Shown piece by piece: positions 12,497 through 59,700 of a DNA stretch of 64,000 bases; position 1 is the stretch's first letter, and the number at the start of each line of letters is the position of its first letter. The translations under genes and the position numbers were made by a program. Under the pieces are notes generated by a model, which did no database searches, was not told the origin of the DNA, and saw only the letters and a program-made list of their open reading frames with translations. Origin of the DNA: Mytilus edulis (lineage: Eukaryota); assembly GCF_963676685.1 (NCBI RefSeq), contig NC_092345.1, forward strand, positions 88,536,001 to 88,600,000, given 5' to 3'.

Positions 12497-15119
12497 TTTT
12501 ATACGACCGCAAAATTTGAAAAAATTTTCGTCGTATATTGCTATCACGTTGGCGTCGGCGTCGTCATCGTCGTCGTCGTCGTCCGGCGTCCGAATACTTT
12601 TAGTTTTCGCACTCTAACTTTAGTAAAAGTGAATGGAAATCTATGAAATTTTAACACAAGGTTTATGACCACAAAAGGAAGGTTGGTATTGATTTTGGGA
12701 GTTTTGGTCCCAACATTTTAGGAATTAGGGGCCAAAAAGGGCCCAAATAAGCATTTTCTTGGTTTTCGCACTATAACTTTAGTTTAAGTTAATAGAAATC
12801 TATGAAATTTTGACACAAGGTTTATGACCACAAAAGAACGGTTGGGATTGATTTTGGGAGTTTAGGTTTCAACAGTTTAGGAATTAGGGGCCAAAAAAGG
12901 GCCCAAATAAGCATTATTCTTGGTTTTCGCACAATAACTTTAGTTTAAGTAAATAGAAATCAATGAAACTTAAACACAATGTTAATGACTACAAAAGGAA
13001 GGTTGATATTGATTTTGGGAGTTAGGTCCCAACATTTTAGGAATTAGGGGCCAAAAAGGGCCCAAATAAGCATTTTCTTGGTTTTCGCACTATAACTTTA
13101 GTTTAAGTTAATAGAAATCTATGAAATTTTGACACAAGGTTTATGACCACAAAAGAACGGTTGGGATTGATTTTGGGAGTTTAGGTTTCAACAGTTTAGG
13201 AATTAGGGGCCAAAAAAGGGCCCAAATAAGCATTATTCTTGGTTTTCGCACAATAACTTTAGTTTAAGTAAATAGAAATCAATGAAATTTAAACACAATG
13301 TTAATGACTACAAAAGGAAGGTTGATATTGATTTTGGGAGTTAGGTCCCAACAGTTTAGGAATTAGGGGCCAAAAAGGGACCCAAATAAGCATTTTTCTT
13401 GGTTTTCGCACCATAACGTTAGTATAAGTAAATAGAAATCTATGAAATTTAAACACAAGGTTTATGACCATAAAAGGAAGGTTGGTATTGATTTTGGGAG
13501 TTTTGGTCCCAACAGAATAAGGGGCCCAAAGGGTCCAAAATTAAACTTTGTTTGATTTCATCAAAATTGAATAATTGGGGTTCTTTGATATGCCGAATCT
13601 AACTGTCATGACTGTGTATGTAGATTCTTAACTTTTGGTCCCGTTTTCAAATTGGTCTACATTAAGGTCCAAAGGGTCCAAAATTAAACTTAGTTTGATT
13701 TTGACAAAAAATGAATCAGTTAAGTTCTTTGATATGCTGAATCTAAAAATGTACTTAGATTTTTGATTATTGGCCCAGTTTTCAAGTTGGTCCAAATCGG
13801 GGTCCAAAATTAAACTTTGTTTGATTTCATCAAAAATTGAATAAATGGGGTTCTTTGATATACCAAATCTAACTGTGTATGTAGATTCTTCATTTTTGGT
13901 CCTGTTTTCAAATTGGTCTACACTAAAGTCCAAAGGGTCCAAAATTAAACTTAGTCTGATTTCAACAAAAATTGAAATCTTGGGGTTCTTTGATATGCTG
14001 AATCCAAAAATGTACTTAGATTTTTTATTATGGGCCCAGTTTTCAAGTTGGTCCAAATCAGGATTTAAAATTATTATATTAAGTATTGTGCAATAGCAAG
14101 TCTTTTCAATTGCACAGTATTGTGCAATGGCAAGAAATATCTAATTTCACAATATTGTGAAATAGCAAATTTTTTTTTAATTAGAGTTATCTTTCTTTGT
14201 CCAGAATAGTAAGCAAGAAATATCTAATTGCAAAATATTGTGCAATAGCAAGATTTTTTTTTAATTGGAGTTATCTTTCTTTGTCCAGAATCAACTGAAA
14301 TCTTTGTTATATACAATATACAATGTATATTCACTTTTTACTACCAACTGATAAATTATAATAAATAACATTCAGTGATAACAAGCAGTTTTTTTTACAT
14401 CTTAATATTTTATGATGTATTTAAATGAGTAGTTATTGTTGCAAACTCCATTAGAAATTTTAATTGAGATTAGTTTTGGAATAAGGGAAAGGGGGATGTG
14501 ATTAAAAAAATTGGGTTCAATTTTTCTCATTTGAAATTTCATAAATAAAAAAGAAAATTTCTTCAAACATTTTTATGCCCCACCTACGATAGTAGAGGGG
14601 CATTATGTTTTCTGGTCTGTGCATCCGTCCGTCCGTCCGTCTGTCCGTTCGTTCGTCCGTCCGTTCATCCGTCTGTCTGTCCCGCTTCAGGTTAAAGTTT
14701 TTGGTCAAGGTAGTTTTTGATGAAGTTTAAGTCCAATCGACTTCAAACTTAGTACACATGTCCCCTATGATATGATCTTTCTAATTTTAATGCCAAATTA
14801 GAGTTTTTACCCCAATTTCACGGTCCACTGAACATGGAAAATGATAGTGCGAGTGGGGCATTCGTGTACTGAGGACACATTCTTGTTTTGAGAGGATTAA
14901 TATTCAACAGCATAGTGAATTGCTCTAAGAGAAAACAAAAATTTTAAGTTCATTAGAACACATTCATTCTGTGTCAGAAACCTATGCTGTGTCAACTATT
15001 TAATCACAATCCAAATTTAGAGCTGAATCCAGCTTGAATGTTGTGTCCATACTTGCCCCAACCGTTCAGGGTTCAACCTCTGCGGTCGTATAAAGCTACG
15101 CCCTGCGGAGCATCTGGTT
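12497..15119 (+). mobile_element. Non-autonomous Helentron/HINE-like element carrying internal satellite arrays (copy 1)
   Basis: Subterminal inverted repeat TTTATACGACCGC...GCGGTCGTATAAA; (GTC)n microsatellite near the 5' end; ~160-bp tandem units with GGGCCC sites, then ~130-bp units; T-rich insertion site with no TSD. A second copy lies inverted at 39218-41253. Confidence 0.75.
14571..14887 (+). mobile_element. Short HINE/DINE-like element nested in the larger element
   Basis: SubTIR ATGCCCCAC...GTGGGGCAT; (CGTC)n microsatellite; 3' hairpin GTGTACTGAGGACAC. The empty site (cttcaaacat-T run-gagagg) is visible in copy 2 near 39443-39465. Confidence 0.8.
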
Positions 15120-20744: not shown

Positions 20745-21069
20745 CTGTGAATTAATAAATAAAATAAAAGTTGACTATATGGTAGGGTAGGTATCTTTTA
20801 TGTTAACTATGTTGTATAAGAAAGATTTACACTAGACCTGTTATTATTTAGGTACACTTATAGGTAACCAATTTCCAATGTCATATGTGATATCTTTACA
20901 GTCTTAAAATATAACACTCATTTTGTGCATAGGAATTTTATCCATTTTCACATTTATAGAATAGATCATTTAATTTTTGTTGCAGGAATCCAATCCTCTG
21001 GAAATCATCAAATTTATATAATTTATAATATGAATTGTGTCTATAAGAATTATAGGAAGATGTTCTAGA

Positions 21070-21837
21070 TGTCACCGGATATATTTATCCATTTTGGTTC
21101 ATTATTATGCATTTCATATTAATTGTGTTTTCCGTGTTATATGTTTTCCATTCATATCATATTCATATTTCATATCATCATGTTTCTTGACGATTGACGA
21201 CAATAGTTTTGCGCTGCATATTTTGAAATAGACTATAGCTTTATACGCTATGCTTTGCTTTACGTACTCAATATTTAAATTAGTACAATAGAAAGTTAAA
21301 GCGATTCTTATTATTTAAATGATATATATTTATATTTAAATAGCATGAGTTTTGCATGAGCTCAAAGCGCGGCAATACTAACCATATATATATTAATACA
21401 ATTTCACTTTTAAAGTTAGTCACTGGTCATTATTACAATCGGGGAGGCGGCAGACTAATGTCTACGCTGCAGGTACTTGTAAATTTATTTATTCTTTTAG
21501 CAATGTTTAAATTAAAGTAAAGTTATTTTAGTATTTCATATATAGAATTCAGTATGGCTTGAAAGCCGCATTTTGGTATATAAGTTAAGGTCAGAATAAA
21601 GCTCCGTTGCATGCAAATATTTCAGTATAGATATTGTTCATATTTATTGGAACATAATTGTAAACTTGGGTTACAATTTGTATACTTGCAGATTATATAA
21701 TAAAGTATTTATATATTGGACGACTCATTAAATGCAGAAATGGCCCACACGCATTACAACGACAAGTTTATGGGTTTATGGTGATTTATCCCTCATCCCA
21801 AGTCGATTTTATATGGTGTTCCATTCTTCCTGCGACA
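21070..21837 (+). repeat. 5' LTR (768 bp)
   Basis: TGTCACC...GCGACA; direct repeat of 29064-29840. Confidence 0.97.
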
Positions 21838-21840
21838 TTT

Positions 21841-21858
21841 TGGAGGTTCCACCGAGAT
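21841..21858 (+). promoter_or_regulatory. Primer-binding site complementary to the 3' end of tRNA-Gln
   Basis: TGGAGGTTCCACCGAGAT, 3 nt after the LTR, is the reverse complement of the eukaryotic tRNA-Gln 3' end ATCTCGGTGGAACCT-CCA. Confidence 0.9.
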
Positions 21859-22607
21859 CGTCCAACGTTTATTGTTATACAGTCAAATTCGAGAAAATGG
21901 TTCCGGAACAATTAGTACCGCTACTTCATGGTGAGACAACAACCACTTGTCAACTTTGATGTCAGCAACTGCTTTATATATTGTGAATTTACGACTGTGA
22001 AACCCTGTTGTTTGAAAGGTATATTTGAAATTCATATTTCTTATAGTGCGCATATCTACCGGGAAGCTCATACTACATCATGTAAATATGTTTGATGTTA
22101 TTTATTATTAGTGAAAGTCAATTTACAAATTTCAACTGAAACATGCACGGTCAGCATACCTGTGAAGGTGAATGTGTATTGCTTTATCACGTGACAACCT
22201 AGACATAGAAGGAATTTAATCGATCAACGTTCCGCACGGATGGAGATTTTTACAACTGTTGCCGGTGAACTGTAGTAGTATTTATTTGACATTCATTTAT
22301 GAAAACAAACTGTTATAAATATTTATTGATTTAAAAATTCATTGTGTTTTATTGTTTGAATATATTTTATCATCTTTACTGTATTTTACAGATTTGATTA
22401 TTGTTTGTGCATGAATAGAAGCACGCACCTGATTTAACAAGTTACGCACTAATAGTTACAGCAGCGACGTAAGAAAGCGACTTGCATTGACACAGACATA
22501 TGAGTAAGTTCATCATCATTACATCATTTTCATTTCATTCATGTGTATTGTCCTTGTTTTGTTTTGTTTATTTTGTGTTGTTTTTGTCGTTGGTTAAAGT
22601 TCAAGTG

Positions 22608-23747
22608 ATGGCTGAAGCGGAGTCAAAACAAGGTTTAAAAACTGAACCTAAGATTTCAGAAGAACACGTTCAGAAAATGATTGAGTTTTTGAATCATAAT
22701 ACAAGCTTTAGAGTTGTAACATCAGATGAGTTTGATAAATTAAGTAGTGAGAAGCATGTATCTTTTGGACATAGTACTCCTATAAGGGGAACTACTGCTC
22801 ATACTAAGCCTCCTTTGGCACCTGTTAGGTCTTCGTCTATAGCAAGAGTGGCAACTTATGCTGCAGGTTTTGGTAATAATACTACCGTTTCTTGTTCAAA
22901 CTCTTCATATGCAAAACCCAAGATACCTGTATTTTCTGGGGAAGAAAAAAGTGAAGTGTCTTTTGACGTATGGAAGTTCGAAGTTAAATGTATAATACGG
23001 GAAGGTAATTATACAGATACTATATTATTGCAGTGTATAAGAGGGTCCCTAAAAGGTAAAGCTAGGGGTTTATTGTTATCACTCCCAGATGGGGCTACAC
23101 CCACACAGATTATTGAAAAATTAGATGGGATATATGGAAATGTGTTCAGTAGTGAAGCATTGCTTCAAAAGTTTTACATGGAAACTCAGAAACAAGGTCA
23201 GTCTGTTGCTGATTATGGTATGAGACTTGAAGATATTGCCCAAAAAGCTGTTGAAAAAGGTCAAATTAGCTCACAGGCTAAAAACGACATGCTTAGATCA
23301 AAGCTGTGGTCAGGTCTCAGAGATCCCCTTTTGAAAAATGCTAGTCGTTATAAATACGATACTGTTGAAAAATTTGATCAGTTATTAAAAGAGATCCGAT
23401 CTATTGAATTGGACTTATCAAATTATGCCTCAGGTTCTGACAATAAGATTCAACATCAACCTGCGGTTGTTGAACAGTCAGGTATGCAAGAGATGATTAA
23501 GTCCATGAAGCTCTTGAATACTAGAATGGAATCATTTGAGGGAGAGTTAAAGAAATTAAAAGAAAGTAAACCTGATGATCATACAAGTTCGTCAAATAGT
23601 CAGTTTCGTGGCCAAGGTCGCGGGAACTATCGAGGGTCTGATAGAAGGGGTAGATTTAATAATAACCGTGGCTGGCGTGGCCGTGGTTATACAGGAAACC
23701 AACAAAACCAGAATTATAATTCTCAGACGAGGGGTTTAAACGGGTAA
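22608..23747 (+). CDS. gag: Gag, PNMA-like capsid with an RG-rich C-terminus (frame is also open from ATG 22500)
   Basis: FSGEEK...FDVWKFEV...IRGSLKGKA...Q..GQSVADYGMRLE capsid motifs; no CCHC knuckle. MAEAES at 22608 is the likelier start. Confidence 0.9.
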   Translation: MAEAESKQGLKTEPKISEEHVQKMIEFLNHNTSFRVVTSDEFDKLSSEKHVSFGHSTPIRGTTAHTKPPLAPVRSSSIARVATYAAGFGNNTTVSCSNSSYAKPKIPVFSGEEKSEVSFDVWKFEVKCIIREGNYTDTILLQCIRGSLKGKARGLLLSLPDGATPTQIIEKLDGIYGNVFSSEALLQKFYMETQKQGQSVADYGMRLEDIAQKAVEKGQISSQAKNDMLRSKLWSGLRDPLLKNASRYKYDTVEKFDQLLKEIRSIELDLSNYASGSDNKIQHQPAVVEQSGMQEMIKSMKLLNTRMESFEGELKKLKESKPDDHTSSSNSQFRGQGRGNYRGSDRRGRFNNNRGWRGRGYTGNQQNQNYNSQTRGLNG

Positions 23748-23806
23748 AGGTCTCGGTTGAGGGACAAACCAGAGACTTATATAGGCCTGAGAATGTGCCT
23801 AGTCCC
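23735..23806 (+). promoter_or_regulatory. -1 programmed ribosomal frameshift signal (slippery heptamer plus pseudoknot)
   Basis: T TTA AAC at 23735-23741 in gag phase. Stem AGGTCTCGGTT (23748-23758) pairs with AACCAGAGACTT (23767-23778); loop GGGAC can pair with GTCCC at 23802-23806. pol is in the -1 frame and open from the slip site. Confidence 0.85.
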
Positions 23807-26800
23807 AAACTTGTTGATACTTGTACGCAGAGCATTCTTGCTCAACGTATGATTGGTTTAGCAAATGAATCTTTTATTTACATTAATAATACAAAGTGTA
23901 AGGCTTTGATTGATACAGGGTCCATGATATCAACAATATCTGAAGGTATGTTGAATGAGTTAACACCTCCACCTGAATTGAAAAGTTTAGATGACTTTAG
24001 CTTATCAATTAGTGTGGCAGGAGGTACCACTTTACCGTATTTAGGTTACATAGAAGCTAGTATAAAGGTTGATTTTGTAGAGCAAGATTTTATGATACCA
24101 TTGTTGGTTGTCTCTCTTACTGATTATAACAAAAATGTACCTGTTATTATTGGTACAAATGTTATCAGATTGTTAGATTCATGTTCTATGGTTGGTAGAC
24201 AGCAAACTAACATAGACAAGATCCCAAGAGAGTGGGATATTGCTTTTAATTCTATCAAAGATGAAGCAATAGGTCAAGTTTACTCTACGAATAAAAATCC
24301 CATCAAGATCAAACCTTTATCTGTCTTAAATGTATCTGGTTTAGCAAGGTCTAAGACACCAGAAGCATGTACAGTAGTGACTGAGAGTCTGTCAGATGAC
24401 TTGTCAGATGTGTCAGTATGTCCACGGGTAGTAAACGTTAAGGGGTCAACTTGTCGGGTCCCAGTTAGAATATTTAACATGACGGCCAAAGCTATGGTCA
24501 TAAAACCTAAAACACACTTGTGTTCTCTGAACGAGGTTAAGGTTGTCCGTCATGTAGATGTACACAGTGCTGAAAGCGCTGTTGATGAAGAGAAAGGGAG
24601 TTTGTCTGATCAGGAGTTATCATCCCTAGGAATTAACTTAGAGAGTTTCGATGTTCCTGAGGATACTAAACTCAGATTGAAAGGTTTAATTAGCAGGTAT
24701 AGGTCTATTTTCTCCCAAGGACCCACTGACATTGGGCTCACAGATCTGATGGAGCACGAGATCCAGTTATCTGATGACAAACCCTTTAGACAACCCTACA
24801 GGCGTATTCCTCCAGCATTGTTCGATGAGGTAAGAGAACATGTACGTGAAATGCTGGAGGCGGGCTGTATAAGGGAGTCTAACAGTCCTTACGCCAGTAA
24901 CGCGGTTCTCGTGCGTAAGAAGGACAGTTCTTTGCGCTTCTGTTTAGATTTTAGATCTTTAAACAAGAAGACAATTCGGGACAGTTATTCTTTGCCTCGC
25001 ATTGACGAGACAATTGATTGTCTAGCTGGGGCTAAATACTTTACGCGACTGGACCTTCGATCGGCATATTGGCAAATGGGCATTAAAGAGTCAGACAAGC
25101 ATAAGACCGCGTTTTCGTTAGGTCCATTGGGGTTCTATGAATTTAATAGGCTCCCCTTTGGTCTGACAAACGCAGGGGCATCGTTTCAAAGATTGATGGA
25201 AAGATGCATGGGAGAAGCTCATTTACGTGAATGCTTAGTATTTTTAGACGATATTGTGGTATTTTCACGTAACATAGATGACCATTTTGCTAGGCTTGAG
25301 TCTGTTTTTAGTCGTCTTAAACACCACGGCTTAAAACTCAAAGGTAGCAAGTGTGAATTTTTTAAGAAGGAGATTAAATATCTTGGTGTTATAGTGTCCG
25401 CCGACGGTATCAAAACCGACCCAGAGAAAGTTATAGCAGTCCAAAATTGGCCAGCTATAAAGAGCATTAAGGACCTTCGTAGGTTTATAGGTTTCACTTC
25501 CTATTACAGGAAATTCATTAGAGACTACGCTAAGATTGCAAAGCCTCTTAATGACCTATTTCTTGGACACCCTACGAACAAGAAGAACCTTGGGTCTAAA
25601 CGAAAGAAGTCTAGTAAGCCTAGTCCTTGGAAATGGGGTCCCGAGGAACAGAATGCTGTTGATCTTATTATTGAAAAGTTGACAAACCCACCAGTTCTTG
25701 CATATGCAGATTTTTCATTACCTTTCATTGTAAACGTTGATGCAAGTGGTACCGGTTTAGGTGCCGTCTTGTATCAAGAACAGGAGGGTAAAGAACGGGT
25801 GATAGCTTACGCTAGTCGTAGCTTACGTGGCCCAGAGAAGTTATATCCAGCCCATAAAAGAGAATTTTTGGCGCTTAAATGGGCTGTAACTGACAAGTTT
25901 CATGATTATCTCTTTGGTAGCAAATTTACCGTTAGAACGGATAATAATCCACTTACGTACGTTCTCGGTAAAGCTAAATTAGATGCTACCGGCCATAGAT
26001 GGGTTGCTTCATTGTCAAACTATGATTTCAGCATTGTGTATAGAACAGGCAAGTCAAATATTGACGCTGACGCTCTTTCTAGACTTCCGTCCGATTGTAA
26101 AGAAGTTTTTAGTGACGTAGTTCAGGCTATTTGTAAATCTATAGTATTAACTCCAGATACAAACCCTGCTATTGAAACTGTATGTTTGTCACATGATATT
26201 CAGTTTATAGACAGCGATAGCGAGATTTTAGCCGATACATCCAAATTCGCTGATATAGATTGGACGTATGAGCAGAGACAAGATTCATGCTTAAGTAGAG
26301 TTATTGATTTAGTTACAACCGGTCATAGACTCACTAAGCGTCAGATGTCTCATGAGACGGATCTTGTCCGAAGATTATTGAGAGAATGGGATAAACTTTG
26401 TCTGAAAGATAAGGTTTTATATAGGAAAAGCTACATTAATCATGAAGCTGTGTTTCAACTAGTATTACCTTCTATTTACCATGAACTAGTACTGACTGCT
26501 CTGCACGACGATGTAGGTCACCAGGGGCGCGATCGTACTTTATCACTTGTGAAATCAAGATATTTTTGGCCGGGTATTGATAGAGACGTAGAGAGAAAAG
26601 TTTCGAACTGTCAGAACTGCATACTCAGAAAGTCGAAGTGCAGGAATTCTGCATCATTGGTAAATATATGTTCTTCCTACCCTTTGGAGCTCATTTGTAT
26701 AGATTTTCTAACTCTTGAGCAGTCAAAGGGAGGATATGAGAATATTTTGGTCATTACGGATCATTTTACGAGGTACGCTCAAGCTATACCTACGAAAAAT

Positions 26801-28081
26801 CAGTCCGCTAAAACTACAGCTAAAGCATTATGGGAAAATTTTATTCAGCACTATTCTTTTCCATCTCGATTTCACAGTGATCAGGGACGAAATTTTGAGG
26901 GTAAGGTTATCCAGGAACTGTGTAGATTAGCAGGCATAAAAAAATCTCGCACTACTCCGTATCACCCGCAAGGGAATGGTCAGTGCGAGCGTTTTAACCA
27001 GACTTTATTAAACATGTTGGGTACTCTTGATGATGAAAAGAAATCCAATTGGAAAGTGTATGTTGCGCCGTTAGTACATGCCTATAATGCAACAAAACAC
27101 GATACAACTGGATACAGCCCACATTATCTGATGTTTGGTTGGCACCCGCGGCTTGCCATTGATGCTTTTATAGGTAATCCAAACCAGTCTGTTACAAAAG
27201 ATCACTCTGCATACGTGAGTGATTTGAAAAAACGACTGCAGTTTGCCTATAGAACAGCTGAAAAATCAGCCGAAAGGACTGGGAGACGTCATAAAACGCG
27301 ATATGATTTGAAAGTCAGACAGTCAGTACTGGAGCCTGGTGATAGAGTTCTACTTAAAAATGTGGCGTTTAGAGGGAAACATAAATTAGAAAATAAGTGG
27401 GGTAAACAACCTTATGTTATAGTTTCAAAACCTGACTCTGATATTCCGGTTTATATCATCAGACAGGAACACGGTCGGGGCCGTAAAACAGTACATAGGA
27501 ATATGTTACTTCCCATTACTTCCATTCCCATTTTAAACCCTCAGTGTAGTGAGAACTCCCAAGATAAGAGAAATGTAGTTTCAAAGAAAGATTGTCCGTC
27601 TGTATTAGTAGACAAAGTTTTAGACTCTGATAAAACAGTGGACGAAATCACTACGGACGACCAAGTTGTTTCAATTACTTCATCTGATATTTCTGAATCT
27701 GAGTCAGAAGAAGAGTTTTTAGTGCACGATTGCCCGAGGCGTCGAGTAGATATAGTACTGCCTCTGAACCCTTTAGCGGATGAATTTCATCCGGGCATTT
27801 TGAATCTAGATGAAGTAAGTCAGCGATCTAGTAGTCCTGACAGTAGTATTGAACAATCTGATGGTCAGAGGTCAAGTATTTTAGATGTATCTGAGTTTAG
27901 CAACCCAGTTCCCGTCAGTAGTGAATCAGAAACCAGTCCTGATAATCAAACGTCAAGCGCCTCTGATAATCATGCGCCGAGCGCTTTAGATTATGTCCAA
28001 CCAGAGTCTGAAATTCAAGTGCGGCGGTCGAGTAGACAAGTGAAACCGCCAGTCCGTTTTCAAGATTATGTTAGATACTAG
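23735..28081 (+). CDS. pol: Pol polyprotein: aspartic protease, reverse transcriptase, RNase H, integrase
   Basis: ALIDTGS (PR); LPFGL and FLDD (RT); NVDAS...E...TDN (RNase H); H-H-C-C, IDF, SDQG, GQCERFN (IN). Uninterrupted. Confidence 0.97.
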   Translation, partial: FKRVKVSVEGQTRDLYRPENVPSPKLVDTCTQSILAQRMIGLANESFIYINNTKCKALIDTGSMISTISEGMLNELTPPPELKSLDDFSLSISVAGGTTLPYLGYIEASIKVDFVEQDFMIPLLVVSLTDYNKNVPVIIGTNVIRLLDSCSMVGRQQTNIDKIPREWDIAFNSIKDEAIGQVYSTNKNPIKIKPLSVLNVSGLARSKTPEACTVVTESLSDDLSDVSVCPRVVNVKGSTCRVPVRIFNMTAKAMVIKPKTHLCSLNEVKVVRHVDVHSAESAVDEEKGSLSDQELSSLGINLESFDVPEDTKLRLKGLISRYRSIFSQGPTDIGLTDLMEHEIQLSDDKPFRQPYRRIPPALFDEVREHVREMLEAGCIRESNSPYASNAVLVRKKDSSLRFCLDFRSLNKKTIRDSYSLPRIDETIDCLAGAKYFTRLDLRSAYWQMGIKESDKHKTAFSLGPLGFYEFNRLPFGLTNAGASFQRLMERCMGEAHLRECLVFLDDIVVFSRNIDDHFARLESVFSRLKHHGLKLKGSKCEFFKKEIKYLGVIVSADGIKTDPEKVIAVQNWPAIKSIKDLRRFIGFTSYYRKFIRDYAKIAKPLNDLFLGHPTNKKNLGSKRKKSSKPSPWKWGPEEQNAVDLIIEKLTNPPVLAYADFSLPFIVNVDASGTGLGAVLYQEQEGKERVIAYASRSLRGPEKLYPAHKREFLALKWAVTDKFHDYLFGSKFTVRTDNNPLTYVLGKAKLDATGHRWVASLSNYDFSIVYRTGKSNIDADALSRLPSDCKEVFSDVVQAICKSIVLTPDTNPAIETVCLSHDIQFIDSDSEILADTSKFADIDWTYEQRQDSCLSRVIDLVTTGHRLTKRQMSHETDLVRRLLREWDKLCLKDKVLYRKSYINHEAVFQLVLPSIYHELVLTALHDDVGHQGRDRTLSLVKSRYFWPGIDRDVERKVSNCQNCILRKSKCRNSASLVNICSSYPLELICIDFLTLEQSKGGYENILVITDHFTRYAQAIPTKNQSAKTTAKALWENFIQHYSFPSRFHSDQGRNFEGKVIQELCRLAGIKKSRTTPYHPQGNGQCERFNQTLLNMLGTLDDEKKSNWKVYVAPLVHAYNATKHDTTGYSPHYLMFGWHPRLAIDAFIGNPNQSVTKDHSAYVSDLKKRLQFAYRTAEKSAERTGRRHKTRYDLKVRQSVLEPGDRVLLKNVAFRGKHKLENKWGKQPYVIVSKPDSDIPVYIIRQEHGRGRKTVHRNMLLPITSIPILNPQCSENSQDKRNVVSKKDCPSVLVDKVLDSDKTVDEITTDDQVVSITSSDISESESEEEFLVHDCPRRRVDIVLPLNPLADEFHPGILNLDEVSQRSSSPDSSIEQSDGQRSSILDVSEFSNPVPVSSESETSPDNQTSSASDNHAPSALDYVQPESEIQVRRSSRQVKPPVRFQDYVRY

Positions 28082-28174
28082 TATTTTAATGTTTTAACCT
28101 TTGAATATTTTTTTATTGATATTTGGAATTTAGTTTTATTTCTATTTAGTTTCATTTTTGTTTGTTTCACAGAA

Positions 28175-28849
28175 ATGAATCAGCATACATATATTTATAC
28201 GTCTAGTAGAGGAAAAGTTCTAGAAGGCAAAGTTCGTTGTAAAACGTTAGTACGTGTAGTGCCTGGAGGAAAATTGGAAACTTTGTGCAAATATGCATAT
28301 GAGGATCTTAAAGATATAGACGGTCTGAAAATCGTGTATTTCATAGCTGGAATACCGGATATTTGTTCTTTAGAAAGGAATCGTAGATCAAATTATGAGG
28401 AATCATTTCTTAAAAGAACTGACAATAGTTGTTTTGAACATGCATTGAGACTAAAGAATACTATAGTAAATACAGAAACTAAATTGAAAAGTATAAATTG
28501 TAAGGTAGTTTTTGCTACTATTACAACTATGAGTTTCTGTCTTTGGAATTTACATAGATTGTCTATTGGAAAAACAAGTCATTTAAAGTATGAGAATGCA
28601 TACGATAGGATGCAGCTAGAACTTAACTCCATTATACAGGATGTAAATAATTTTATTACAGAATTTAATCATACAAATCATGTTATCACTCCATTTTTTC
28701 ATTCTCCTGTACATAAATGTAAGAGTGGAAAATTTAGATATTTGTATAACAGATTAGTGGATGGGGTACATCCTACATTTGATTTGGCAAGAATTTGGAT
28801 TGATCGTTTGTCAACGGCAATTCAAAGCAATGAGGAAAGATTTTTTTAA
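28175..28849 (+). CDS. ORF3 in the env position: SGNH/GDSL-hydrolase-like protein, 224 aa
   Basis: Block I IYTSSRG (GDS-like Ser), block II VPGG, block III FIAGIPD, block V LVDGVHP (DxxH). Lies between pol and the PPT; preceded by a strong splice acceptor. Confidence 0.8.
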   Translation: MNQHTYIYTSSRGKVLEGKVRCKTLVRVVPGGKLETLCKYAYEDLKDIDGLKIVYFIAGIPDICSLERNRRSNYEESFLKRTDNSCFEHALRLKNTIVNTETKLKSINCKVVFATITTMSFCLWNLHRLSIGKTSHLKYENAYDRMQLELNSIIQDVNNFITEFNHTNHVITPFFHSPVHKCKSGKFRYLYNRLVDGVHPTFDLARIWIDRLSTAIQSNEERFF

Positions 28850-29050
28850 TTTTATTTAACTTTTTGATATTTTTTTGTTCTGTTATTTGTTTGTGAATCC
28901 TATTGGTTGTCTTGAATTTTGGTCATTGCTATATGGTATAGAGGCGTTTGCCGCATACCTATCTAGAATGCCCAAATTTCAAAAGTGTCATATTGTTGTA
29001 TAAGGTTTGATATATTGGTTTCGATATAGTTTCGAGACGAAACTTTTTGT

Positions 29051-29059
29051 AGGAGGGGG
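29051..29059 (+). promoter_or_regulatory. Polypurine tract
   Basis: AGGAGGGGG just before the 3' LTR. Confidence 0.85.
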
Positions 29060-29063
29060 TGTA

Positions 29064-29840
29064 TGTCACCGGATATATTTATCCATTTTGGTTCATTATT
29101 ATGCATTTCATATTAATTGTGTTTTCCGTGTTATATGTTTTCCATTCATATCATATTCATATTTCATATCATCATGTTTCTTGACGATTGACGACAATAG
29201 TTTTGCGCTGCATATTTTGAAATAGACTATAGCTTTATACGCTATGCTTTGCTTTACGTACTCAATATTTAAATTAGTACAATAGAAAGTTAAAGCGATT
29301 CTTATTATTTAAATGATATATATTTATATTTAAATAGCATGAGTTTTGCATGAGCTCAAAGCGCGGCAATACTAACCATATATATATTAATACAATTTCA
29401 CTTTTAAAGTTAGTCACTGGTCATTATTACAATCGGGGAGGCGGCAGACTAATGTCTACGCTGCAGGTACTTGTAAATTTATTTATTCTTTTAGCAATGT
29501 TTAAAATGTTTCAATTAAAGTAAAGTTATTTTAGTATTTCATATATAGAATTCAGTATGGCTTGAAAGCCGCATTTTGGTATATAAGTTAAGGTCAGAAT
29601 AAAGCTCCGTTGCATGCAAATATTTCAGTATAGATATTGTTCATATTTATTGGAACATAATTGTAAACTTGGGTTACAATTTGTATACTTGCAGATTATA
29701 TAATAAAGTATTTATATATTGGACGACTCATTAAATGCAGAAATGGCCCACACGCATTACAACGACAAGTTTATGGGTTTATGGTGATTTATCCCTCATC
29801 CCAAGTCGATTTTATATGGTGTTCCATTCTTCCTGCGACA
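29064..29840 (+). repeat. 3' LTR (777 bp)
   Basis: Matches the 5' LTR by eye apart from an extra 9 bp (aatgtttca) near 29505. Confidence 0.97.
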
Positions 29841-30124
29841 TAGACATCACTTTGAATTAGTATTTCTATGCAGTAAAATGAAGACACTTTCAAAACAAAA
29901 GAAAATTATTTATCAAAATACAAAATAAATTATTTTTGCCTCTTCTAAGAATCAGAAAACAGTTATAACTAGTACTAGATTCTCCTTTGATGGTGTGCAA
30001 TGTTGAATCTGACTATAGTAGATTTCTGTTCATTATTTGACTTATTGGTTAAGATTATAGTGATCAGTGTAGTTGTTTTGTTATCTTGTTTGTCTTTGAT
30101 ATATACTAATTGAGTAAAACAAAC

Positions 30125-30242
30125 CTGCTCTCTTAAGGCCTCAAGTCTTTCTTCTTTTTCTATTTCTGCTTGCTTTTTTTCTTCTTCTAAGTATTTTCTC
30201 TCCTCAATTTTTGCATCTAATTGTTCTGCTCTATATTTAATC
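30125..30242 (-). CDS. CCDC148: CCDC148 exon (RIKYRAEQLDAKIEERK...ERLEALREQ)
   Basis: GT-AG boundaries; matches RVKYRQE...RLEALRKQ. Confidence 0.9.
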
Positions 30243-38445: not shown

Positions 38446-38775
38446 AAGATGCTTCAAAGTCTTCAAAATCTTCAAATAATGAACAACATGGGTTTCCTTG
38501 AGTCAGGTTAACTCCTCTATGAACATCAATGTCTGATTGTAGCCTTTTACGTAAATTGTTAAGTCGTATCAGTTCTTTATTCCACACAAGTTTATGTTGT
38601 TTAAGCAGAGTATTTTCCTTGGTTTGTTTAGACAATTGTTCTATTTTCTTCACCTTGAGGAGAGACTTATGAGCACTAAACTTTTTCTCTGCAGCGAGTA
38701 GTCGTAACTTGTCATAATCTACAGCTTTATATTTATTACTTCGAACTCCATTTGTAGCTTTGTTTACAAGTGTGT
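38388..38775 (-). CDS. CCDC148: CCDC148 coding exon 2 (DTLVNKATNGVRSNKYKAVDYDKLR...TLLKQHKLVW...QPVWNLR)
   Basis: Matches KYKPVDYQQLR...TLIKQHKQVW; GT-AG boundaries. Confidence 0.93.
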
Positions 38776-39217
38776 CTAAAAAATAACAATGTACCATCAT
38801 TTAAGCATTTGAGATCAAATATTTTCTAAAAGAATTATTAAACAATAACTTTGACAATGATTTAAGTCAGAAACATTCTAATAGCAAGGCCAGTTCTGTG
38901 TCTGACATGTAGTTTTTTAAACATCCTTGTCCTTTGGTTTGTGGTGGATACTTGTCTCATCAGCCATCATATCACACATGTTCTTATACAGTCATCAAAT
39001 GATTCTGAAAGAACAGTCATGTAACAGGAAAACACTATAGTATGTAACCATGAAGCCCATAAATTATATTTGTTCTATATTATTTTTACAGTTAAGATGA
39101 AGATGTTTATTATAAGGGACATTCAATATTAATAAGGAAAAACCAGTAGATCAACACTATTTTTCACTCAAAAAAGCTTTACTGCACTTAACCTAATACT
39201 GTCTTTGAAATAATAAA

Positions 39218-41253
39218 AACCAGATGCTCCGCAGGGTGCAGCTTTATACGACCGCAGAGGTTGAATCCTGAACGGTTGGGGCAAGTATGGACACAACATT
39301 CAAGCTGGATTCAGCTCTAAATTTGGATTGTGATTAAATAGTTGACACAGCATAGGTTTCGGACACAGAATGAATGTGGTCTAATGAACTTAAAATATTT
39401 TTTTTTGCCTTTGAGCAATTCACTATGCTGTTGAATATTAATCCTCTCAAAAAAATGTTTGAAGAAATTTTCTTTTTATTTATGAAATCTGAAATGAGAA
39501 AAATTTAACCCCCCCCCCCCACCATTTTTTTTTCACATCCCCCTTTCCCTTCTTCCAAAACTGATCTCAATTCAAATTTCTAATGGAGTTTGCAACAATA
39601 ACTACTCATTTAAATACATCATAAAATATTAAAATGTAACAAAAGGTGCTTGTTATCACTGAATGGTTAAGATTGTTTTAATTTATCAGTTGGTAGAAAA
39701 GTGAATATACATTGTATATTGTATAAAACAATGATTTAAGTTGATTCAACTACTATTCTGGATAAAGAAAGATAACTCCAATCAATTGAAAATTTCTTGC
39801 TATTGCACAATATTGTGCAATTAGATATTTCTTGCTATTGCGCAATACTGTGCAATTGAAAATATTTGCTATTGCACAATACTGTGCAATTGAAGATTTC
39901 TTGCTATTGCGCAAAACTGTGCAATTGAAAATTTCTTGCTATTGCACAATACTGTGCAATTGAAGATTTCTTGCTATTGCTGAATACTGTGCAATTGAAA
40001 ATTTCTTGCTATTGCACAAAACTTAATATAATAATTTTGGATCCTGATTTGAACCAACTTGAAAACTGGGTCCATAATCAAAAATCTAAGTACATGTTTA
40101 GATTCAGCATATCAAAAAAGCCCAAGAATTCAATTTTTGTTAAAATCAAACTTAGTTTAATTTTGGACCCTTTGGACTTTAATGTAGACCAATTTGAAAA
40201 CGGGACTAAACATTAAGAATCTACATACACAGTTAGATTTGGCATATCAAAGAACCCCAATTATTCAATTTTTGATGAAATCAAACAAAGTTTAATTTTG
40301 GACCCCGATTTGGACCAACTTGAAAACTGGGCCAATAATAAAAAATCTAAGTACATTTTTAGATTCAGCATATCAAAGAACCCCAAGGATTCAATTTTTG
40401 TTAAAATCAAACTTAGTTTAATTTTGGACCCTTTGGACCTTAATGTAGACCAATTTGAAAACGAGACCAAAAATTAAGAATCTACATACACAGTTAGATT
40501 CGGCATATCATAGAACCCCAATTATTCAATTTTTGATGAAATCAAACAAAGTTCAATTTTGGAGCCTTTGGGCCCCTTATTCCTAATCTGTTAGGACCAA
40601 AATTCCCAAAATTCCCAAAATCAAACCCAACCTTCCTTTAGTGGTCATAAACCATGTGTTTAAATTTCATAGATTTCTATTTACTTATACTAAAGTTATG
40701 GTGCGAAAACCAAGAATAATGCTTACTTGGGCCCCTTTTTGGCCCCTAATTCCTAAACTGTTCAGACTTCAACTCCAAAAATCAATCCCAATCTTCCTTT
40801 TGTGGTCATAAACCTTGTGTTTAAATTTCATTGATTTCTATATATATATACTTATACTAAAGTTATTGTGTGAAAACCAAGAATAATGCTTATTTGGGCC
40901 CTTTTTTGGCCCCTAATGCCTAAACTGTTTGAACTAAAACTCCCAAAATCAATCCCAACCTTCCTTTTGTGGTCATAAACCTTGTGTTTAAATTTTCCTA
41001 GATTTCTATTCACTTTTACTAAAGTTAGAGTGCGAAAACCAAGAATAATGCTTACTTGGGCCCCTTTTTGGCCCCTAATTCCTAAACTGTTCAGACTTCA
41101 ACTCCAAAAATCAATCCCAACCTTCCTTTTGTGGTCATAAACCTTGTGTTTAAATTTAAAAGTATTCGGACGACGACGATGATGCAGACAACGACGCCAA
41201 CATGATACCAATATAAGACCAAATTTTTTAAAATTTTTGCGGTCGTATAAAAA
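39218..41253 (-). mobile_element. Helentron/HINE-like satellite-carrying element, copy 2 (inverted), in a CCDC148 intron
   Basis: Reverse complement of 12497-15119 without the nested insert, and with different unit numbers in the internal arrays. Confidence 0.78.
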
Positions 41254-53654: not shown

Positions 53655-53988
53655 TTAAGGATATATTATACCCATTTATCGTCTGTTTGGTTGTTACGAA
53701 TTAAAGCTCAAATTGATATCCGAATATGTTAAAAACAAGTTACCATTTGCTTCGATCCGATTAAAAACTTATGTACTAAGTATTACAATATACCTTCTTA
53801 TTTTCAATTTAATCATGTATTTTGGTTTTCCAAACTTTCTGCCCCGGGCGTAATTTACAGCATTTTTCCCTCATGCTCAGCATTTTTTGGTGTTGATCAG
53901 ACATAAGATTATTTCATTTTTAAACTGCAATACTTAATTCTCAAGTAGCAATTTTAATGGTTATAATGTGTTTTTTTTCTTCAGGAAT

Positions 53989-55938
53989 ATGTTACGATCC
54001 ATATCCACACACAACTTCATACACTTTATTAAGCCACAAAGATTAGAGTTCAAAGATGGCACCAATTATATAGTTGGTGGAAACTCGACTGGTAAATCGG
54101 CCATTTTTGAACTGATACGTAGAAGTTTGTCAAATGATATCAATACAACGTCATCCTCGTTCACTATTGATTCTAACATTGCATATTCAATCTGTCATTT
54201 CAAAATCCCAGATGGGATCAAGCAACAGTTTCCTTGCAATCCAACCGATATCATCTCTGGTCTCTTTGTGGAGAAAGCAAACAAAGGCGACGAAGGCCAA
54301 CTTTCTTATTACTATTACAAAGTTTTAGTAATGACAAAGGAGTTCAATAGCTTAGAAATATTAATAACTAGATTTGAAGGGTTACGTTCATGTAATTCAG
54401 ATCAATTTCATTCCCAATTATATTTGTATTATAATTTTAACAATGATAAAGTATCAGAGTCTATAAAAGATGTAATGAGAGAAGGCAACCATGATACCTA
54501 TCATAAAAGTATCCAGTCTCTTTTTGATGAAATAAAGCAAAATGCTATCTTTGATGAAAACATTTGCAACCAAGATAAAGTTGACAATCTATTCAAGAGC
54601 CTTGAAGATAGTTATGTGAGCGTCCTACCAATGCGTTCAATTGGGCCTTTACAGTGGACTAGAAGTGAAAAGAATTGTCACAGCGAGAGAGAGAACAACT
54701 ATGCAATTACATGTCAAAGAGCAGAGATTATAAATAATCTCCTAGACAGCGATAAAACTGACACATATCTTCACAATAAGTATCACACGTTGCTAGTTGC
54801 TCCATATAGATTTCAAAAAGAGGGAAGCGACGTTTTTATGTATAACGACGACGGAGCTACAATAATTAAAAAGCCCCTCTTAAAAACTCCCGAGGGCATA
54901 ATAGAGGCTGAACAGCTAATACTACTGTTATCACAAAGCAACTTGTTAACAATTACACTAGAAGAGCCAGACAGAGGAATGCACCCACAAATGATAACAA
55001 AAATGCGAGACTGGGTTTTAAAGAAAGTGAAGAATAAGACCGTTCTTGTTATATCCCACAATCCGTCCATTTTGGATCATGCAGTTCTTGACAGAACATA
55101 TATATGCTCAAAAAGTATCCAAAGTGGATATATTTCTCACTCTGTCATGAAATTCCCTGATGGATATAGAAAATATGGAAGAATTGAGGAAACGAAAAAT
55201 CTGTTATTTTGTGAACGCATTTTATTTGTAGAAGGATTTACCGATAAAATCTTCATTGAGGCAATTTTTGATGTCCTGATAAATGATAGTAAAAGGAACA
55301 ACAAAATCATTGGTCAGAAACAGATAATCAATACTGAATTGTTTAGGAAATACCTATCAACCATTCATGTCGCAGAATTGGTAGAGGGATGCGGAAGTGG
55401 ACCAAAAAAGATGGAATTTTGTGACAAATTACGACGGGAATGTTGCATTGTCTATGATGCTGACGTATTAAAAACATCACCAAAGAAAGAGACACTGTCC
55501 GAGCCTAGAATATTTATTTGGAAGGAAGGGGCACTGGAAAATGTAATCAATAAAGCTGCTATTCACATGCCCCAAGAAATCAAGGATAAGCTAGACATAC
55601 CTATTTCGAGACGAAATTTTAAGAATTGGAAAACTAGTTTAGTTGATAAGAGTGACAAGGACATTGCTTTATTAGCCAATGCCCTTCTTGATTCATCTGA
55701 CGAGATCAATAGGTTTTTAGAATTTTTACGTAAGATGATGGAAAATCCGAATATTGCTCTTAATATAACTAGATCGGAAAAAAGAAAACTGTCATTTCCT
55801 GACTGTAGTTCTAAAAGAATGACTGGAGAACAACATCCAGTTGAGGATCTAGAAACAATTGACGATCCGGAAATGGAACCAAGAACAGGAATTTCTCAAG
55901 ATTTCGATGATGTTGTTTTAGATGACGTCGAAAAATGA
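53989..55938 (+). CDS. OLD-family ATP-dependent nuclease-like protein: N-terminal ABC ATPase plus C-terminal TOPRIM, 649 aa, single coding exon
   Basis: MLRSISTHNF start typical of Rad50/OLD ATPases; Walker A GGNSTGKS; degenerate signature TPEG; Walker B/D-loop TLEEPDRGMHP; H-switch VISHNP; TOPRIM LFVEGFTD, YDAD and EGALE. Acceptor ttttttttcttcag| lies 4 nt before the ATG; AATAAA cluster near 56000. Confidence 0.88.
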   Translation: MLRSISTHNFIHFIKPQRLEFKDGTNYIVGGNSTGKSAIFELIRRSLSNDINTTSSSFTIDSNIAYSICHFKIPDGIKQQFPCNPTDIISGLFVEKANKGDEGQLSYYYYKVLVMTKEFNSLEILITRFEGLRSCNSDQFHSQLYLYYNFNNDKVSESIKDVMREGNHDTYHKSIQSLFDEIKQNAIFDENICNQDKVDNLFKSLEDSYVSVLPMRSIGPLQWTRSEKNCHSERENNYAITCQRAEIINNLLDSDKTDTYLHNKYHTLLVAPYRFQKEGSDVFMYNDDGATIIKKPLLKTPEGIIEAEQLILLLSQSNLLTITLEEPDRGMHPQMITKMRDWVLKKVKNKTVLVISHNPSILDHAVLDRTYICSKSIQSGYISHSVMKFPDGYRKYGRIEETKNLLFCERILFVEGFTDKIFIEAIFDVLINDSKRNNKIIGQKQIINTELFRKYLSTIHVAELVEGCGSGPKKMEFCDKLRRECCIVYDADVLKTSPKKETLSEPRIFIWKEGALENVINKAAIHMPQEIKDKLDIPISRRNFKNWKTSLVDKSDKDIALLANALLDSSDEINRFLEFLRKMMENPNIALNITRSEKRKLSFPDCSSKRMTGEQHPVEDLETIDDPEMEPRTGISQDFDDVVLDDVEK

Positions 55939-56776: not shown

Positions 56777-59700
56777 TAGCACGGCAGCTTTGTGAACAAT
56801 ATGCACATCCTGCTACAAGATGAAATTTGGCATAGACCTTCCTCAACTATTACTCTTTAATTTCAGATAGGGAGGCATTTGTAAAAAAATGTCTCACTTC
56901 CGGTAAAATCCAAAATGCCGGACATCATACTTAAATCAGCCCAGAATCAGAGGCTATAGTGTGTGAATATGTGTTTTTATCATGCTGCTATAATAATATT
57001 TGGTACAAACCTTTGTAATGTACTACTTTTGGATATATTATATAGATTAGATGTCTTTAAAAACCCTTCTTCCGGAAAAATCCAACATGGCGGACATTGT
57101 ACTAAAACAAGATTATTTTTTAGGGAGGGCGATTGAAATGTGTTTTGACGTATTGCTACTATCATTAAATTGTGCGGGAACCTTTCTTTGAAGCTGCTAA
57201 CGGATACAATGTACAAGACATATGTCTTTAAAACCTTACTTCCGGTAATATTCAAAATGACGGACATAGAAATATCATTATTTTATTTTGATATTCAACT
57301 TTTTTTCAAAATGTAAAGAAAATGTTGTTTTTTTTGTGCTGGTTATTAAACTTTTGGCTTTAAGTTATCCTCTAAACCACTTATTCTATTCTATAGTTAA
57401 TGTTTAAATACAAAGTTAAAACTTCCAGTAAATAAAACCAATATGGCGTAAATTTCAAAGATGAGTCCGCAGTCCATATCTTCGATGTAGAGTTTTGGAT
57501 AGATTGATTAAAAATAAAATTAAATAACTTAGGTACTAAAACATCTTTAAAATTACTGATTTATGTCCGCAAATACATGTTTATTCACAATCGGAGAGCT
57601 GATTTTCCTCATTTACAAAGACCGTGGTATTGTTTCTTACATAAATAATGTACAAGCTCTTGATAAGAGAAGCACAAATATGGCAGTGATAGGTGAGCTA
57701 GGGAGATATCCTTTATTTATTGAAGTTATAGTTAATATGTTTTCATACTTATCACGTTTAACAAGTACAGAGGACCAATTATTGTCTGAAGCTCTCCTTG
57801 TATCAAAATCCTTATCAAACCATAGTAAGAAAAGTTGGTTTAATTCTATAAGTTCACTAGCAAAATACTTAGACATAGATTTATCGCAAGTTTTTAATAT
57901 GAAATCAAACTTGAAAAGATTTATTTTAAACAAACTTAAATTAAAGTATAATAAGTTGTGGTATTCATCTTTAAACAATGACAGAAAAAATATGTCATTT
58001 GTGAATAAATTTAGAACATACAGACTTTTAAAGAGAAATATATATTTTGAACCTTATTTGGCTATAGGTAATAGGAATCTGAGAATTCAGATGACAAAAT
58101 TCAGAATTAGTAATCATGATTTAGAAATAGAGAGAGGTAGATACAGGGGACTTCATGCAATGGATAGAACTTGTAATCTTTGTAAAAAAGAAGTGGAAGA
58201 TGAACTCCATTTTTTACTTAAATGTTCATATTTGGAAAGTGAGAGAGTTTCCATTATTTCCAACATAGTTAAAAGTTACAAAAACTTTCACAATTTATAT
58301 TATCAATCACAATTTATTTGGCTAATGTCCAATGAAGATAGTCACATTTTTAATCAAGTAAGCAATTTAATTAATAATTTAAATGTTGTTCGAAAACAAC
58401 TATTAGAAACTTAGTGAGTTTATATATTTTACTATAAAAAGACAGAGGCATAATTTAGATATTTGTACAGTTTCTTATTGTAGGATCATAAAAGCACCAG
58501 GGGAAAAACCAGGATATTTAAATTCAGTTTCCTATTTTTTAGGATCACTGTATTTGTCAAAGTTGAAACATGATACATTTTATAAATATACATTAGTGTG
58601 TCTTTCTTTTCTCTTCGTTGTAATCATTGATTTAATTGTACTCAAATAATTGTAATCATTTTGTAATCATTGTACATAATTTAACTTGTGATTATTCTGC
58701 TTGTAATGGGCGTCTCTAATTGACAATAAAATATATTTGATTTGATTTGATTTGATAAGATGAAGAGGACTCACAAAGAGTTGTCCAAAAGGGTTCCAAT
58801 GAATCGTATTATCCCCTTTGCCGTTCATAAGCGTCTAGACTGGTAAGCATAGGAACTAATTCCAAGCTTGTTACTCATCCACACCTTCCATGGTATATTT
58901 CACGTTTTACATGCTGAAAAAACTAGACAGAGTCGTTCAAATAGCATCATAAGCGTCTGGACTAGTTAGCATAGGAAAAAAATCCAAGCTTGTTTCTCAT
59001 CCACACCCGCCATGGTATATTGCACGTTTTACATGCTAAAAACACTAGACCAAGTCGTTCAAATAGCATCAATAAGTCTTTTCTCTTCCAAAAACATGTT
59101 TTCTTGCTTCGTAAATAAAATTGAGAATGGAAAAGAGGAATGTGTCAAAGAGACAACAACCCGACCATAGAATAGACAACAGCAGTAGGTCACCAACAGG
59201 AAACCCCATCTGATAAGTTTGTTCGATCTTACTACAAAACCATGTATCGCTTTATCAATGACATTATCAAATCCATATCTGGTGATGTTGGCTGATCAAT
59301 CATCATTCTAAATCAATAAAGTCACATCTTCAAACACCATCCATGTCAACAACGAAGTTCCCTTTCAAGTAAACGTACATATGAAAGGTCAGGGATAGAT
59401 ATATATCTAAAGCTTTTCCCACTTCCAAATGCAAGCCAAAGTTCGTCTGCCCTATGTCACGGAATAACGAAACAGCAATGACAGCAACATCAGTATCGAC
59501 TGTTCGAGTCATGACTCAGTTAAGTCTATGTATCACTGTATCATACAGCAAGCTCATGTGAATAACAACTAAAACGTTCTTTCTTAATGTCGTCACCTCT
59601 CAGAAAACGTTGCCAATTTTGAGAATTTTTTTTTGACCATGGATTCGTCTATGTATTCCCTTTCCCCTAAATGTAGCTCTTGTTTCTTATAGCAGCCTTC

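Follow-up and report, generated by a model that had tools for sequence, protein, structure and literature searches.

A young Ty3/Gypsy retrotransposon of a Mytilus mussel with an env-style spliced RNA for a predicted SGNH-fold hydrolase

The stretch of DNA analysed here, 64 kb in length and hereafter called the window, holds at 21070-29840 an intact, full-length Ty3/Gypsy LTR retrotransposon (Metaviridae) with three genes. The insertion is recent, the only difference between its two LTRs is one 9-nt indel, and no second copy of the element was found within the 64-kb window. The host is a Mytilus mussel, since the closest named relatives of ORF3 (98%) and Gag (93%) are M. edulis proteins. The features of the element are the following, X16 and X19 being two public sequencing runs presented further on.

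21066..21069 and 29841-29844: left and right copies of the target-site duplication TAGA
21070..21837, + strand: 5' LTR, 768 nt, with TG...CA ends
21473..21691, + strand: LTR intron, 219 nt, GT..AG, with two joint rows in X16 and none in X19
21841..21858, + strand: primer-binding-site-like stretch read from the sequence, beginning with TGG 3 nt after the LTR
22019..22391, + strand: optional leader intron, 373 nt, GT..AG
22392..22503, + strand: final exon of the leader (112 nt), which includes an upstream ORF of 8 codons (22411) as well as the ATG at 22500
22500..22502, + strand: upstream ATG, in the gag frame when unspliced and in the ORF3 frame (two more residues) when spliced
22504..28172, + strand: major intron, 5669 nt, GT..AG, which takes out gag and pol
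22608..23747, + strand: gag, 379 aa counted from the conserved Met
23720..28081, + strand: pol, 1453 open codons in the -1 frame
23732..23741, + strand: two overlapping -1 slippery heptamers at the end of gag
28175..28849, + strand: ORF3, 224 aa, predicted SGNH/GDSL-fold hydrolase
29051..29059, + strand: polypurine tract, read from the sequence
29064..29840, + strand: 3' LTR, 777 nt

The gag product contains a PNMA-type capsid domain (PF14893, E 2.7e-11, Pfam) and has an RG-rich tail with no CCHC motif. Its PNMA type is the sole pointer to a clade within Gypsy. Pfam places protease, reverse transcriptase, RNase H and integrase in this order after gag, and no dUTPase family was matched in pol at E up to 1. 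The first of the two slippery heptamers was located by script and the second by reading the sequence; they are followed by a predicted hairpin of -21.7 kcal/mol, a value computed without a shuffle control. The primer-binding-site-like stretch may be that of tRNA-Gln, and a tRNA scan found no tRNA. A bacterial promoter scan, unsuited to an animal LTR, returned chance-level counts.

The nature of ORF3 emerges from its modelled structure and its family alignment. Pfam gave a match under the cut-off for the single protein (E 0.023) and a Lipase_GDSL match at E 0.01 for 10 of the 98 rows of the alignment. The model built on these 98 rows has a pLDDT of 97.1 and a pTM of 0.92; its best Foldseek E value is 1.8e-07, and all PDB rows listed are of the GDSL/SGNH type. 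Fold comparison gave a Z of 18.5 (rmsd 2.3, 162 aligned), with the OSK domain also among the matches (Z 15.8). The ZfL2-1 esterase is not among the fold rows listed, which excludes nothing. Language-model neighbours of ORF3 include Lipase_GDSL clusters. Solved structures searched by sequence gave nothing meaningful with the single protein or with an 11-row profile; the 98-row profile reached GDSL-like chains. The model thus assigns ORF3 to the SGNH/GDSL superfamily by fold.

The catalytic blocks were mapped by sequence against Table 2 of PMC10792757. The putative Ser-Asp-His triad (S11, D196 and H199) is kept in 95 of the 98 rows, at about 30% identity among them, and 91 rows retain all four residues when G31 is added. 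The place of the block III Asn is occupied by P61, and the rows have Pro (61), Cys (27), Thr (7) or Asn (3) there. SGNH-type enzymes without this Asn exist, namely DltD and acetylxylan-esterase-like proteins, according to the same table (PMC10792757, Table 2). By its residues, ORF3 would be a deviant lacking the oxyanion Asn, of the sort placed with DltD in PMC10792757, and not a canonical SGNH enzyme. Its pI is 9.2, as is the median of the rows; its best hydrophobic window scores 1.37, and no row of the 98 reaches 1.9. From fold and composition, a soluble, basic serine hydrolase or acyltransferase is predicted. ORF3 has no signal peptide, membrane anchor or fusion-protein fold. Its identification as env was rejected on its 224 aa, its alpha/beta SGNH fold and its lack of a membrane segment. 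The term "env-style" used in the earlier note fits the mode of expression but not the protein, an SGNH-fold hydrolase by its model. The family profile matches 1156 representatives at E up to 0.001.

The same note, made from the letters of the window, had predicted a spliced subgenomic RNA devoid of gag-pol in which ORF3 is brought to the 5' leader. Re-reading of the sequence found its coordinates for donor, acceptor and both ATGs all correct. The donor side consists of the ATG at 22500-22502, an A at 22503 and GTAAGT at 22504-22509; on the acceptor side, a T-rich tract leads to a CAG ending at 28172 (AG 28171-28172), followed by two A's and the ATG at 28175-28177. Six bases separate the A's of both ATGs after splicing, and the join to ORF3 is in frame as foreseen. 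The acceptor ranks first of the 601 AG sites of the element by a crude matrix, and the donor takes place 35 among its 523 GT sites. The donor had been called perfect; its intron hexamer is indeed the consensus, but the exon side is TGA and only 6 of 9 positions match. With 18 GTAAGT hexamers on the + strand of the 64-kb window, the donor alone is within chance expectation. T makes up 54% of the tract after the donor and 60% of that before the acceptor.

The predicted splice is real. Among 24 matching public runs, 20 contain half or more of the query words (15 studies, none recorded as RNA), and four, X16, X19, X21 and X24, were aligned to 21070-29063. A contig of X16 with a depth of 78.8 joins 22503 to 28173, exactly to the predicted base, skipping 5669 nt between GT and AG with an unambiguous cut and 30 letters on the short side. 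X16 comprises assembled contigs (75 million letters) of a kind, RNA or DNA, that is not on record, and contigs show neither strand nor level. Neighbouring contigs start at 22474 and 28173 and end at 28202, which are the assembly-graph branch points expected for a splice, and at 28198 the joint contig and the two flanking ones carry the same allele (depth 530.9 = 255 + 197.1 + 78.8). Unspliced pieces are present in the same run (22474-23782 at depth 27.7 and 27227-28202 at depth 197.1), and depth climbs towards the 3' end from 27.7 to 46.1, 169.8, 197.1 and 255. X16 is very probably RNA, because it combines three canonical introns on the same strand with this rise in depth. At the donor the spliced share is roughly 74%, at the acceptor roughly 29%; since the depth of contigs is a poor measure, we conclude only that spliced and unspliced forms coexist and that both are common.

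None of the three X16 joints was found in the DNA-like run X19, of which about half of 5.9 billion letters were read and which carries a different organism label from X16; its long contigs run unbroken across the donor (21840-24612) and the acceptor (26864-28935). One X19 joint from 22583 to 28149 (depth 2, TT..TA) was discarded as a T-rich artefact. The junction that the earlier note proposed to look for is present in assembled contigs of X16; the raw RNA runs X21 and X24, with 24 reads and 1 read, show no junction and are too shallow to count either way. No change is listed at the donor or at 22500-22503 in the X16 and X19 contigs covering them, nor at the acceptor in X16; in the X19 acceptor contig, none of the 10 listed differences (of 12) falls at the acceptor site. 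The expressed X16 copy differs slightly from the window copy, and the transcript evidence comes from a near-identical sister copy in one run that is not provably the locus 21070-29840.

Two leader introns, 21473-21691 and 22019-22391, were absent from the earlier prediction. The joints of the LTR intron have depths of 47 and, for an allele with a small insertion, 98.3, and the intron contains one AATAAA (21595). Splicing of the LTR intron at the 5' end of the transcript, at the 3' end or at both is compatible with the X16 joints. For the optional leader intron, joint depth is 95.4 vs 98.2 unspliced, and its acceptor ranks fourth of the 601 AG sites by the crude matrix; its splicing takes out six upstream ATGs. 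Ten upstream ATGs still precede 22500 after removal of all three introns, counted from an assumed start at 21400, and because of them translation may be poor.

Start codons were compared among relatives, for which both Gag and ORF3 starts are called and not measured ones. From 155 ORF3 relatives considered, 121 are 200-320 aa long, and 114 of these have the block I Ser; 103 of the 114 have a Met 7-12 residues before this Ser, which is the called start in 89. The residues that precede the Met in the other 14 contain 10.8% Phe vs 2.7% and are rich in residues with T-rich codons, as would be expected if these N-terminal extensions reflected a pyrimidine tract before the Met. An "acceptor-compatible" pattern in the same extensions (13 of 14 match) was dropped as too loose and devoid of a null. 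The Gag N-terminal motif was found in 40 of 74 relatives, whose starts lie 16-29 residues before it in 37 cases, 39 in two and 5 in one; ATG 22608 stands at a distance of 20 and ATG 22500 at 56, a distance seen in no relative. The description of 22500 as the first gag-frame ATG is correct as to order, but the conserved Gag start is 22608, and the donor would accordingly be placed upstream of the true gag start. Sequence context is weak at 22500 (-3 C), with -3 A at 28175 and both -3 G and +4 G at 22608. ORF3 has its own Met two bases after the acceptor, nearly invariant in the 11-row alignment. Because of this conserved Met and of the conserved Gag start at 22608, the upstream ATG should matter little: it adds two residues at most and is probably dispensable or incidental for ORF3.

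The genomic company of the gene was deduced from eight longer hits. All of these are gene models of Mytilus species (M. edulis, M. coruscus and M. californianus), produced automatically and informative on gene neighbourhood, not on real splicing. Six of them join pol pieces like those of this element to an ORF3 relative, most right at the Met, one combines an env piece with a chromo-like domain and a distant integrase, and one has no pol match. The M. edulis model P0092 joins a Baculo_F-type envelope (TM 0.78) to an ORF3 gene with 49% identity. The two longest contigs of one Gag cluster measure 16561 and 8787, as do those of one ORF3 cluster, which suggests that the two clusters share contigs. 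The gene models also suggest that an ORF3-type gene travels with a true env in a sister lineage, and this speaks against the view that it replaces env. ORF3 would be an accessory enzyme and not an envelope substitute, since sister families carry the gene behind pol and one lineage has it beside an F-type env. A metagenome scan for related DNA yielded two degraded fragments among 98 candidate stretches, with neither leader nor pol; viral contigs gave no hit with the ORF3 alignment as query (0 of 55) or with the gag alignment (0 of 60), and prokaryote genomes none in 28. A tree of 27 rows was rejected as a basis for origin claims (6 of 24 inner branches supported, long-branch warnings).

We regard as likely the view of an LTR retrotransposon with one transcript and two fates, in which ORF3 is an accessory enzyme occupying the env slot and expressed in the env way without being an envelope. 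Transcription would be driven by the LTR. RNA left unspliced at 22504 would serve both as genome and as mRNA for Gag, from the start at 22608, and would yield Gag-Pol by a -1 frameshift. RNA spliced from 22503 to 28173 loses gag-pol and would be the ORF3 mRNA, a step encountered at the RNA level in the near-identical copy. Both forms are observed, and a weak donor combined with a strong acceptor may keep splicing partial. ORF3 translation would start mainly at its own ATG 28175, to which ATG 22500 could add two unneeded residues. The product, with its modelled fold, intact triad and non-standard oxyanion hole, would be an active enzyme; by analogy with the ZfL2-1 esterase, it would most likely act on an acylated substrate at membranes in particle assembly or transport, a proposal about evenly balanced against other substrates. 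The earlier description of ORF3 as a regulated, expressed gene and not passive cargo is borne out for expression by the joint in X16 and supported for "not passive cargo" by the conservation of catalytic residues across a large family; regulation and production of a protein are presumed.

The splice could be real and ATG 22500 a functional switch, starting ORF3 on spliced RNA and, on unspliced RNA, giving Gag a 36-residue hydrophobic leader and membrane anchorage, in parallel to the glyco-Gag of murine leukaemia virus. This ATG is the first in-frame one for a scanning ribosome, and no change is listed at 22500-22503 in the X16 and X19 contigs covering it. The 36-residue extension is open and hydrophobic, with a best 19-residue window of 2.54 that 2.0% of 20,000 shuffles match in a post hoc test; however, T-rich tracts give hydrophobic residues by composition, and another frame of the tract is also open. 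Hydrophobic extensions of 17, 18 and 25 residues occur in the relatives P0029, P0022 and P0248, but extensions in relatives vary in length and sequence. In Springer-type insect elements, sequence 5' of the donor does supply a portion of the env start codon (bioRxiv 10.1101/2023.08.03.551782). With the weak context of 22500 (-3 C) set against those of 28175 (-3 A) and 22608 (-3 G, +4 G), and with the conserved Mets being ORF3's own and the second one of Gag, we consider such a switch unlikely.

It is quite improbable that the spliced RNA encodes a non-catalytic SGNH-fold domain binding RNA or protein, like the OSK of Oskar, for example so that unspliced RNA is exported or packaged, in the manner of CERV in Cer1. 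Several features point that way: 88 of the 98 rows have Pro or Cys where block III normally carries Asn, the median pI is basic (9.2), the OSK domain appears in the fold comparison with a Z of 15.8, and CERV, a spliced LTR-element product, is able to serve RNA export (PMC10309623). On the other hand, the OSK domain has lost the Ser-Asp-His triad, which persists in 95 of the 98 aligned rows at an identity of about 30%, and enzyme families lacking the Asn are known, DltD and acetylxylan-esterase-like (PMC10792757, Table 2). Very improbable, finally, is a joint that stems from a deleted or processed DNA copy or from cryptic splicing of read-through RNA, with ORF3 as passive cargo. The joint comes from a single run whose kind is not on record, and X19 was about half read and bears another organism label, which leaves room for a deleted copy in the X16 animal. 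Yet X16 alone shows three independent GT..AG joints, each in the orientation of the element, and the cut falls exactly at the best of 601 acceptors. Spliced contigs account for roughly 74% of the depth at the donor and roughly 29% of that at the acceptor. The ORF is intact and belongs to a family, 1156 representatives strong, with a conserved triad; even a processed copy would presuppose splicing.

A splice first predicted from sequence alone has now been observed, and the env slot known from retroviruses, complete with a separate subgenomic mRNA, can be put to use for a predicted enzyme. Why several retroelement classes keep SGNH esterases has been a question since their discovery in non-LTR elements and in rotifer LTR elements. 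ORF3 is small and stand-alone, is predicted to be soluble, is confidently modelled and comes from a farmed animal in which its family is intact and transcribed; this makes the substrate question directly testable. A broader picture can be offered as a tentative possibility, itself rather doubtful: an undescribed and widespread family of retroelement accessory enzymes, with over a thousand clusters at 50% identity, may occupy the env slot of marine invertebrate Gypsy elements, with a conserved subgenomic splice whose acceptor lies right before the Met. The module might move between env-less and env-bearing lineages and act on host lipids or acylated proteins to aid particle travel or to blunt host defence; the Pro/Cys-for-Asn site might define an SGNH subfamily that is new, and the output of genome, Gag and ORF3 might be tuned by the several introns of the leader, one of which lies within the LTR.

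There are precedents both for a spliced ORF3 and for a GDSL ORF3, so that the surprise is limited; an arrangement like this one has so far been described mainly in rotifers. No paper on an SGNH ORF3 in molluscan Gypsy elements was found in the literature searched, mostly devoid of subscription papers, Repbase and supplements; in term searches of the main text of two mollusc surveys (PMC6238403, PMC10294476), the relevant terms were absent. The bdelloid rotifer Vesta LTR retrotransposons carry a GDSL esterase ORF3 (Rodriguez et al. 2017, PMC5408684; also PMC6431247). Like the mussel element, Vesta has gag and pol together with a GDSL/SGNH ORF3 that takes the place of env and has neither coiled-coil nor membrane domain (PMC5408684). 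Its S-G-N-H residues are reported intact and a dUTPase is present in the clade (PMC5408684), whereas the Asn is replaced in the mussel protein and Pfam shows no dUTPase in pol. The Vesta authors describe splicing of ORF3s as usual, with reads mapped per ORF, and left activity open while suggesting an auxiliary role; no mapped ORF3 junction was noticed in the portion used of PMC5408684, whereas the mussel joint is mapped in X16.

Insect errantiviruses express env from a spliced mRNA with mapped junctions (in part of bioRxiv 10.1101/2023.08.03.551782). In errantiviruses as in the mussel element, subgenomic splicing links the 5' region with a third ORF located after pol, and in some errantivirus subclades a start codon or short peptide comes from upstream of the donor (same portion of bioRxiv 10.1101/2023.08.03.551782). 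Unlike errantivirus env, mussel ORF3 has a predicted soluble SGNH fold, no signal peptide, membrane anchor or fusion-protein fold, and its own conserved Met, and the mussel leader contains two further introns. The MDG1 group expresses small accessory ORFs in the absence of splicing, by the part of the source consulted (10.1101/2025.03.14.642691). CERV of C. elegans Cer1 is, like mussel ORF3, a non-env accessory protein from a spliced LTR-retrotransposon mRNA, but it is an RNA-export regulator and not an SGNH-fold enzyme (in part of PMC10309623). The esterase of ZfL2-1 ORF1p hydrolyses esters and binds acidic phospholipids (in part of Schneider et al. 2013, PMC3905857). The ORF3 family profile gave no sequence match to this esterase at E up to 10. 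The two proteins have in common that they are retroelement-borne and basic, with an SGNH fold and a catalytic triad, as judged from that portion of PMC3905857. The ZfL2-1 esterase is a domain of a Gag-like ORF1p, behind a coiled coil and with its oxyanion Asn kept (PMC3905857), whereas mussel ORF3 is a stand-alone gene with its own spliced RNA.

The SGNH gene, the third open frame of the Ty3/Gypsy element and predicted to encode an SGNH/GDSL-fold hydrolase, is also carried by a second lineage, represented by the Mytilus gene models P0092, P0099 and P0011. This lineage also encodes an F-type env, a distant integrase and a chromo-like domain. In a M. trossulus RefSeq isoform, the SGNH gene bears an N-terminal extension of 44 residues. 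Two further models display other architectures: in the M. californianus RefSeq model P0245 the SGNH gene is fused to a long N-terminal portion (714 aa) that does not derive from pol, and P0103 is a protein of 2135 aa in which the SGNH domain is present in five or six copies. Host co-option of the SGNH gene is a possible reading of both.

Within and around the element, the following features were recorded.

23732-23810, + strand: overlapping -1 slippery heptamers with a predicted hairpin downstream, at the end of gag
12600-15100 and 39200-41200: two stretches rich in tandem repeats that form a long inverted pair with 86-96% complementarity
30125-30242 and 38654-38775, - strand, opposite to the element: two stretches resembling exons of a host gene for a coiled-coil protein
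30440 to about 32000: array of a 32-nt unit in dozens of near-identical copies, beginning about 600 nt past the 3' LTR

A Leu-Asn motif similar to that at the end of gag is found at the end of the Gag relatives too. The two stretches of the inverted pair lie one on each side of the element, with about 25 kb between them. The coiled-coil gene is presumably CCDC148-like, and the element probably lies inside or adjoining it, in antisense orientation.

Contigs of X16, an assembled public run taken to be RNA, exit from the LTR precisely at the LTR donor (21472-21473) and continue into non-element sequence; these continuations possibly correspond to LTR-driven transcripts spliced into host genes. 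In the same run, contig depth rises abruptly from 46 to 170 in the RT region (about 25207-25262); this jump may reflect a bias towards the 3' end, the presence of a truncated copy or a start inside the element.

Two other open frames were found in the window.

57560-58414, + strand: 284 codons, weak zf-RVT match (E 0.014)
53938-55938, + strand: 666 codons, ABC-type ATPase and OLD-like TOPRIM domain

The shorter frame, which has an inverted repeat on either side (at about 57000 and 61100), is probably a fragment of a mobile element. The longer one is an OLD-nuclease-like gene, uninterrupted in the mussel genome; OLD nucleases are best known from the anti-phage defence of bacteria.
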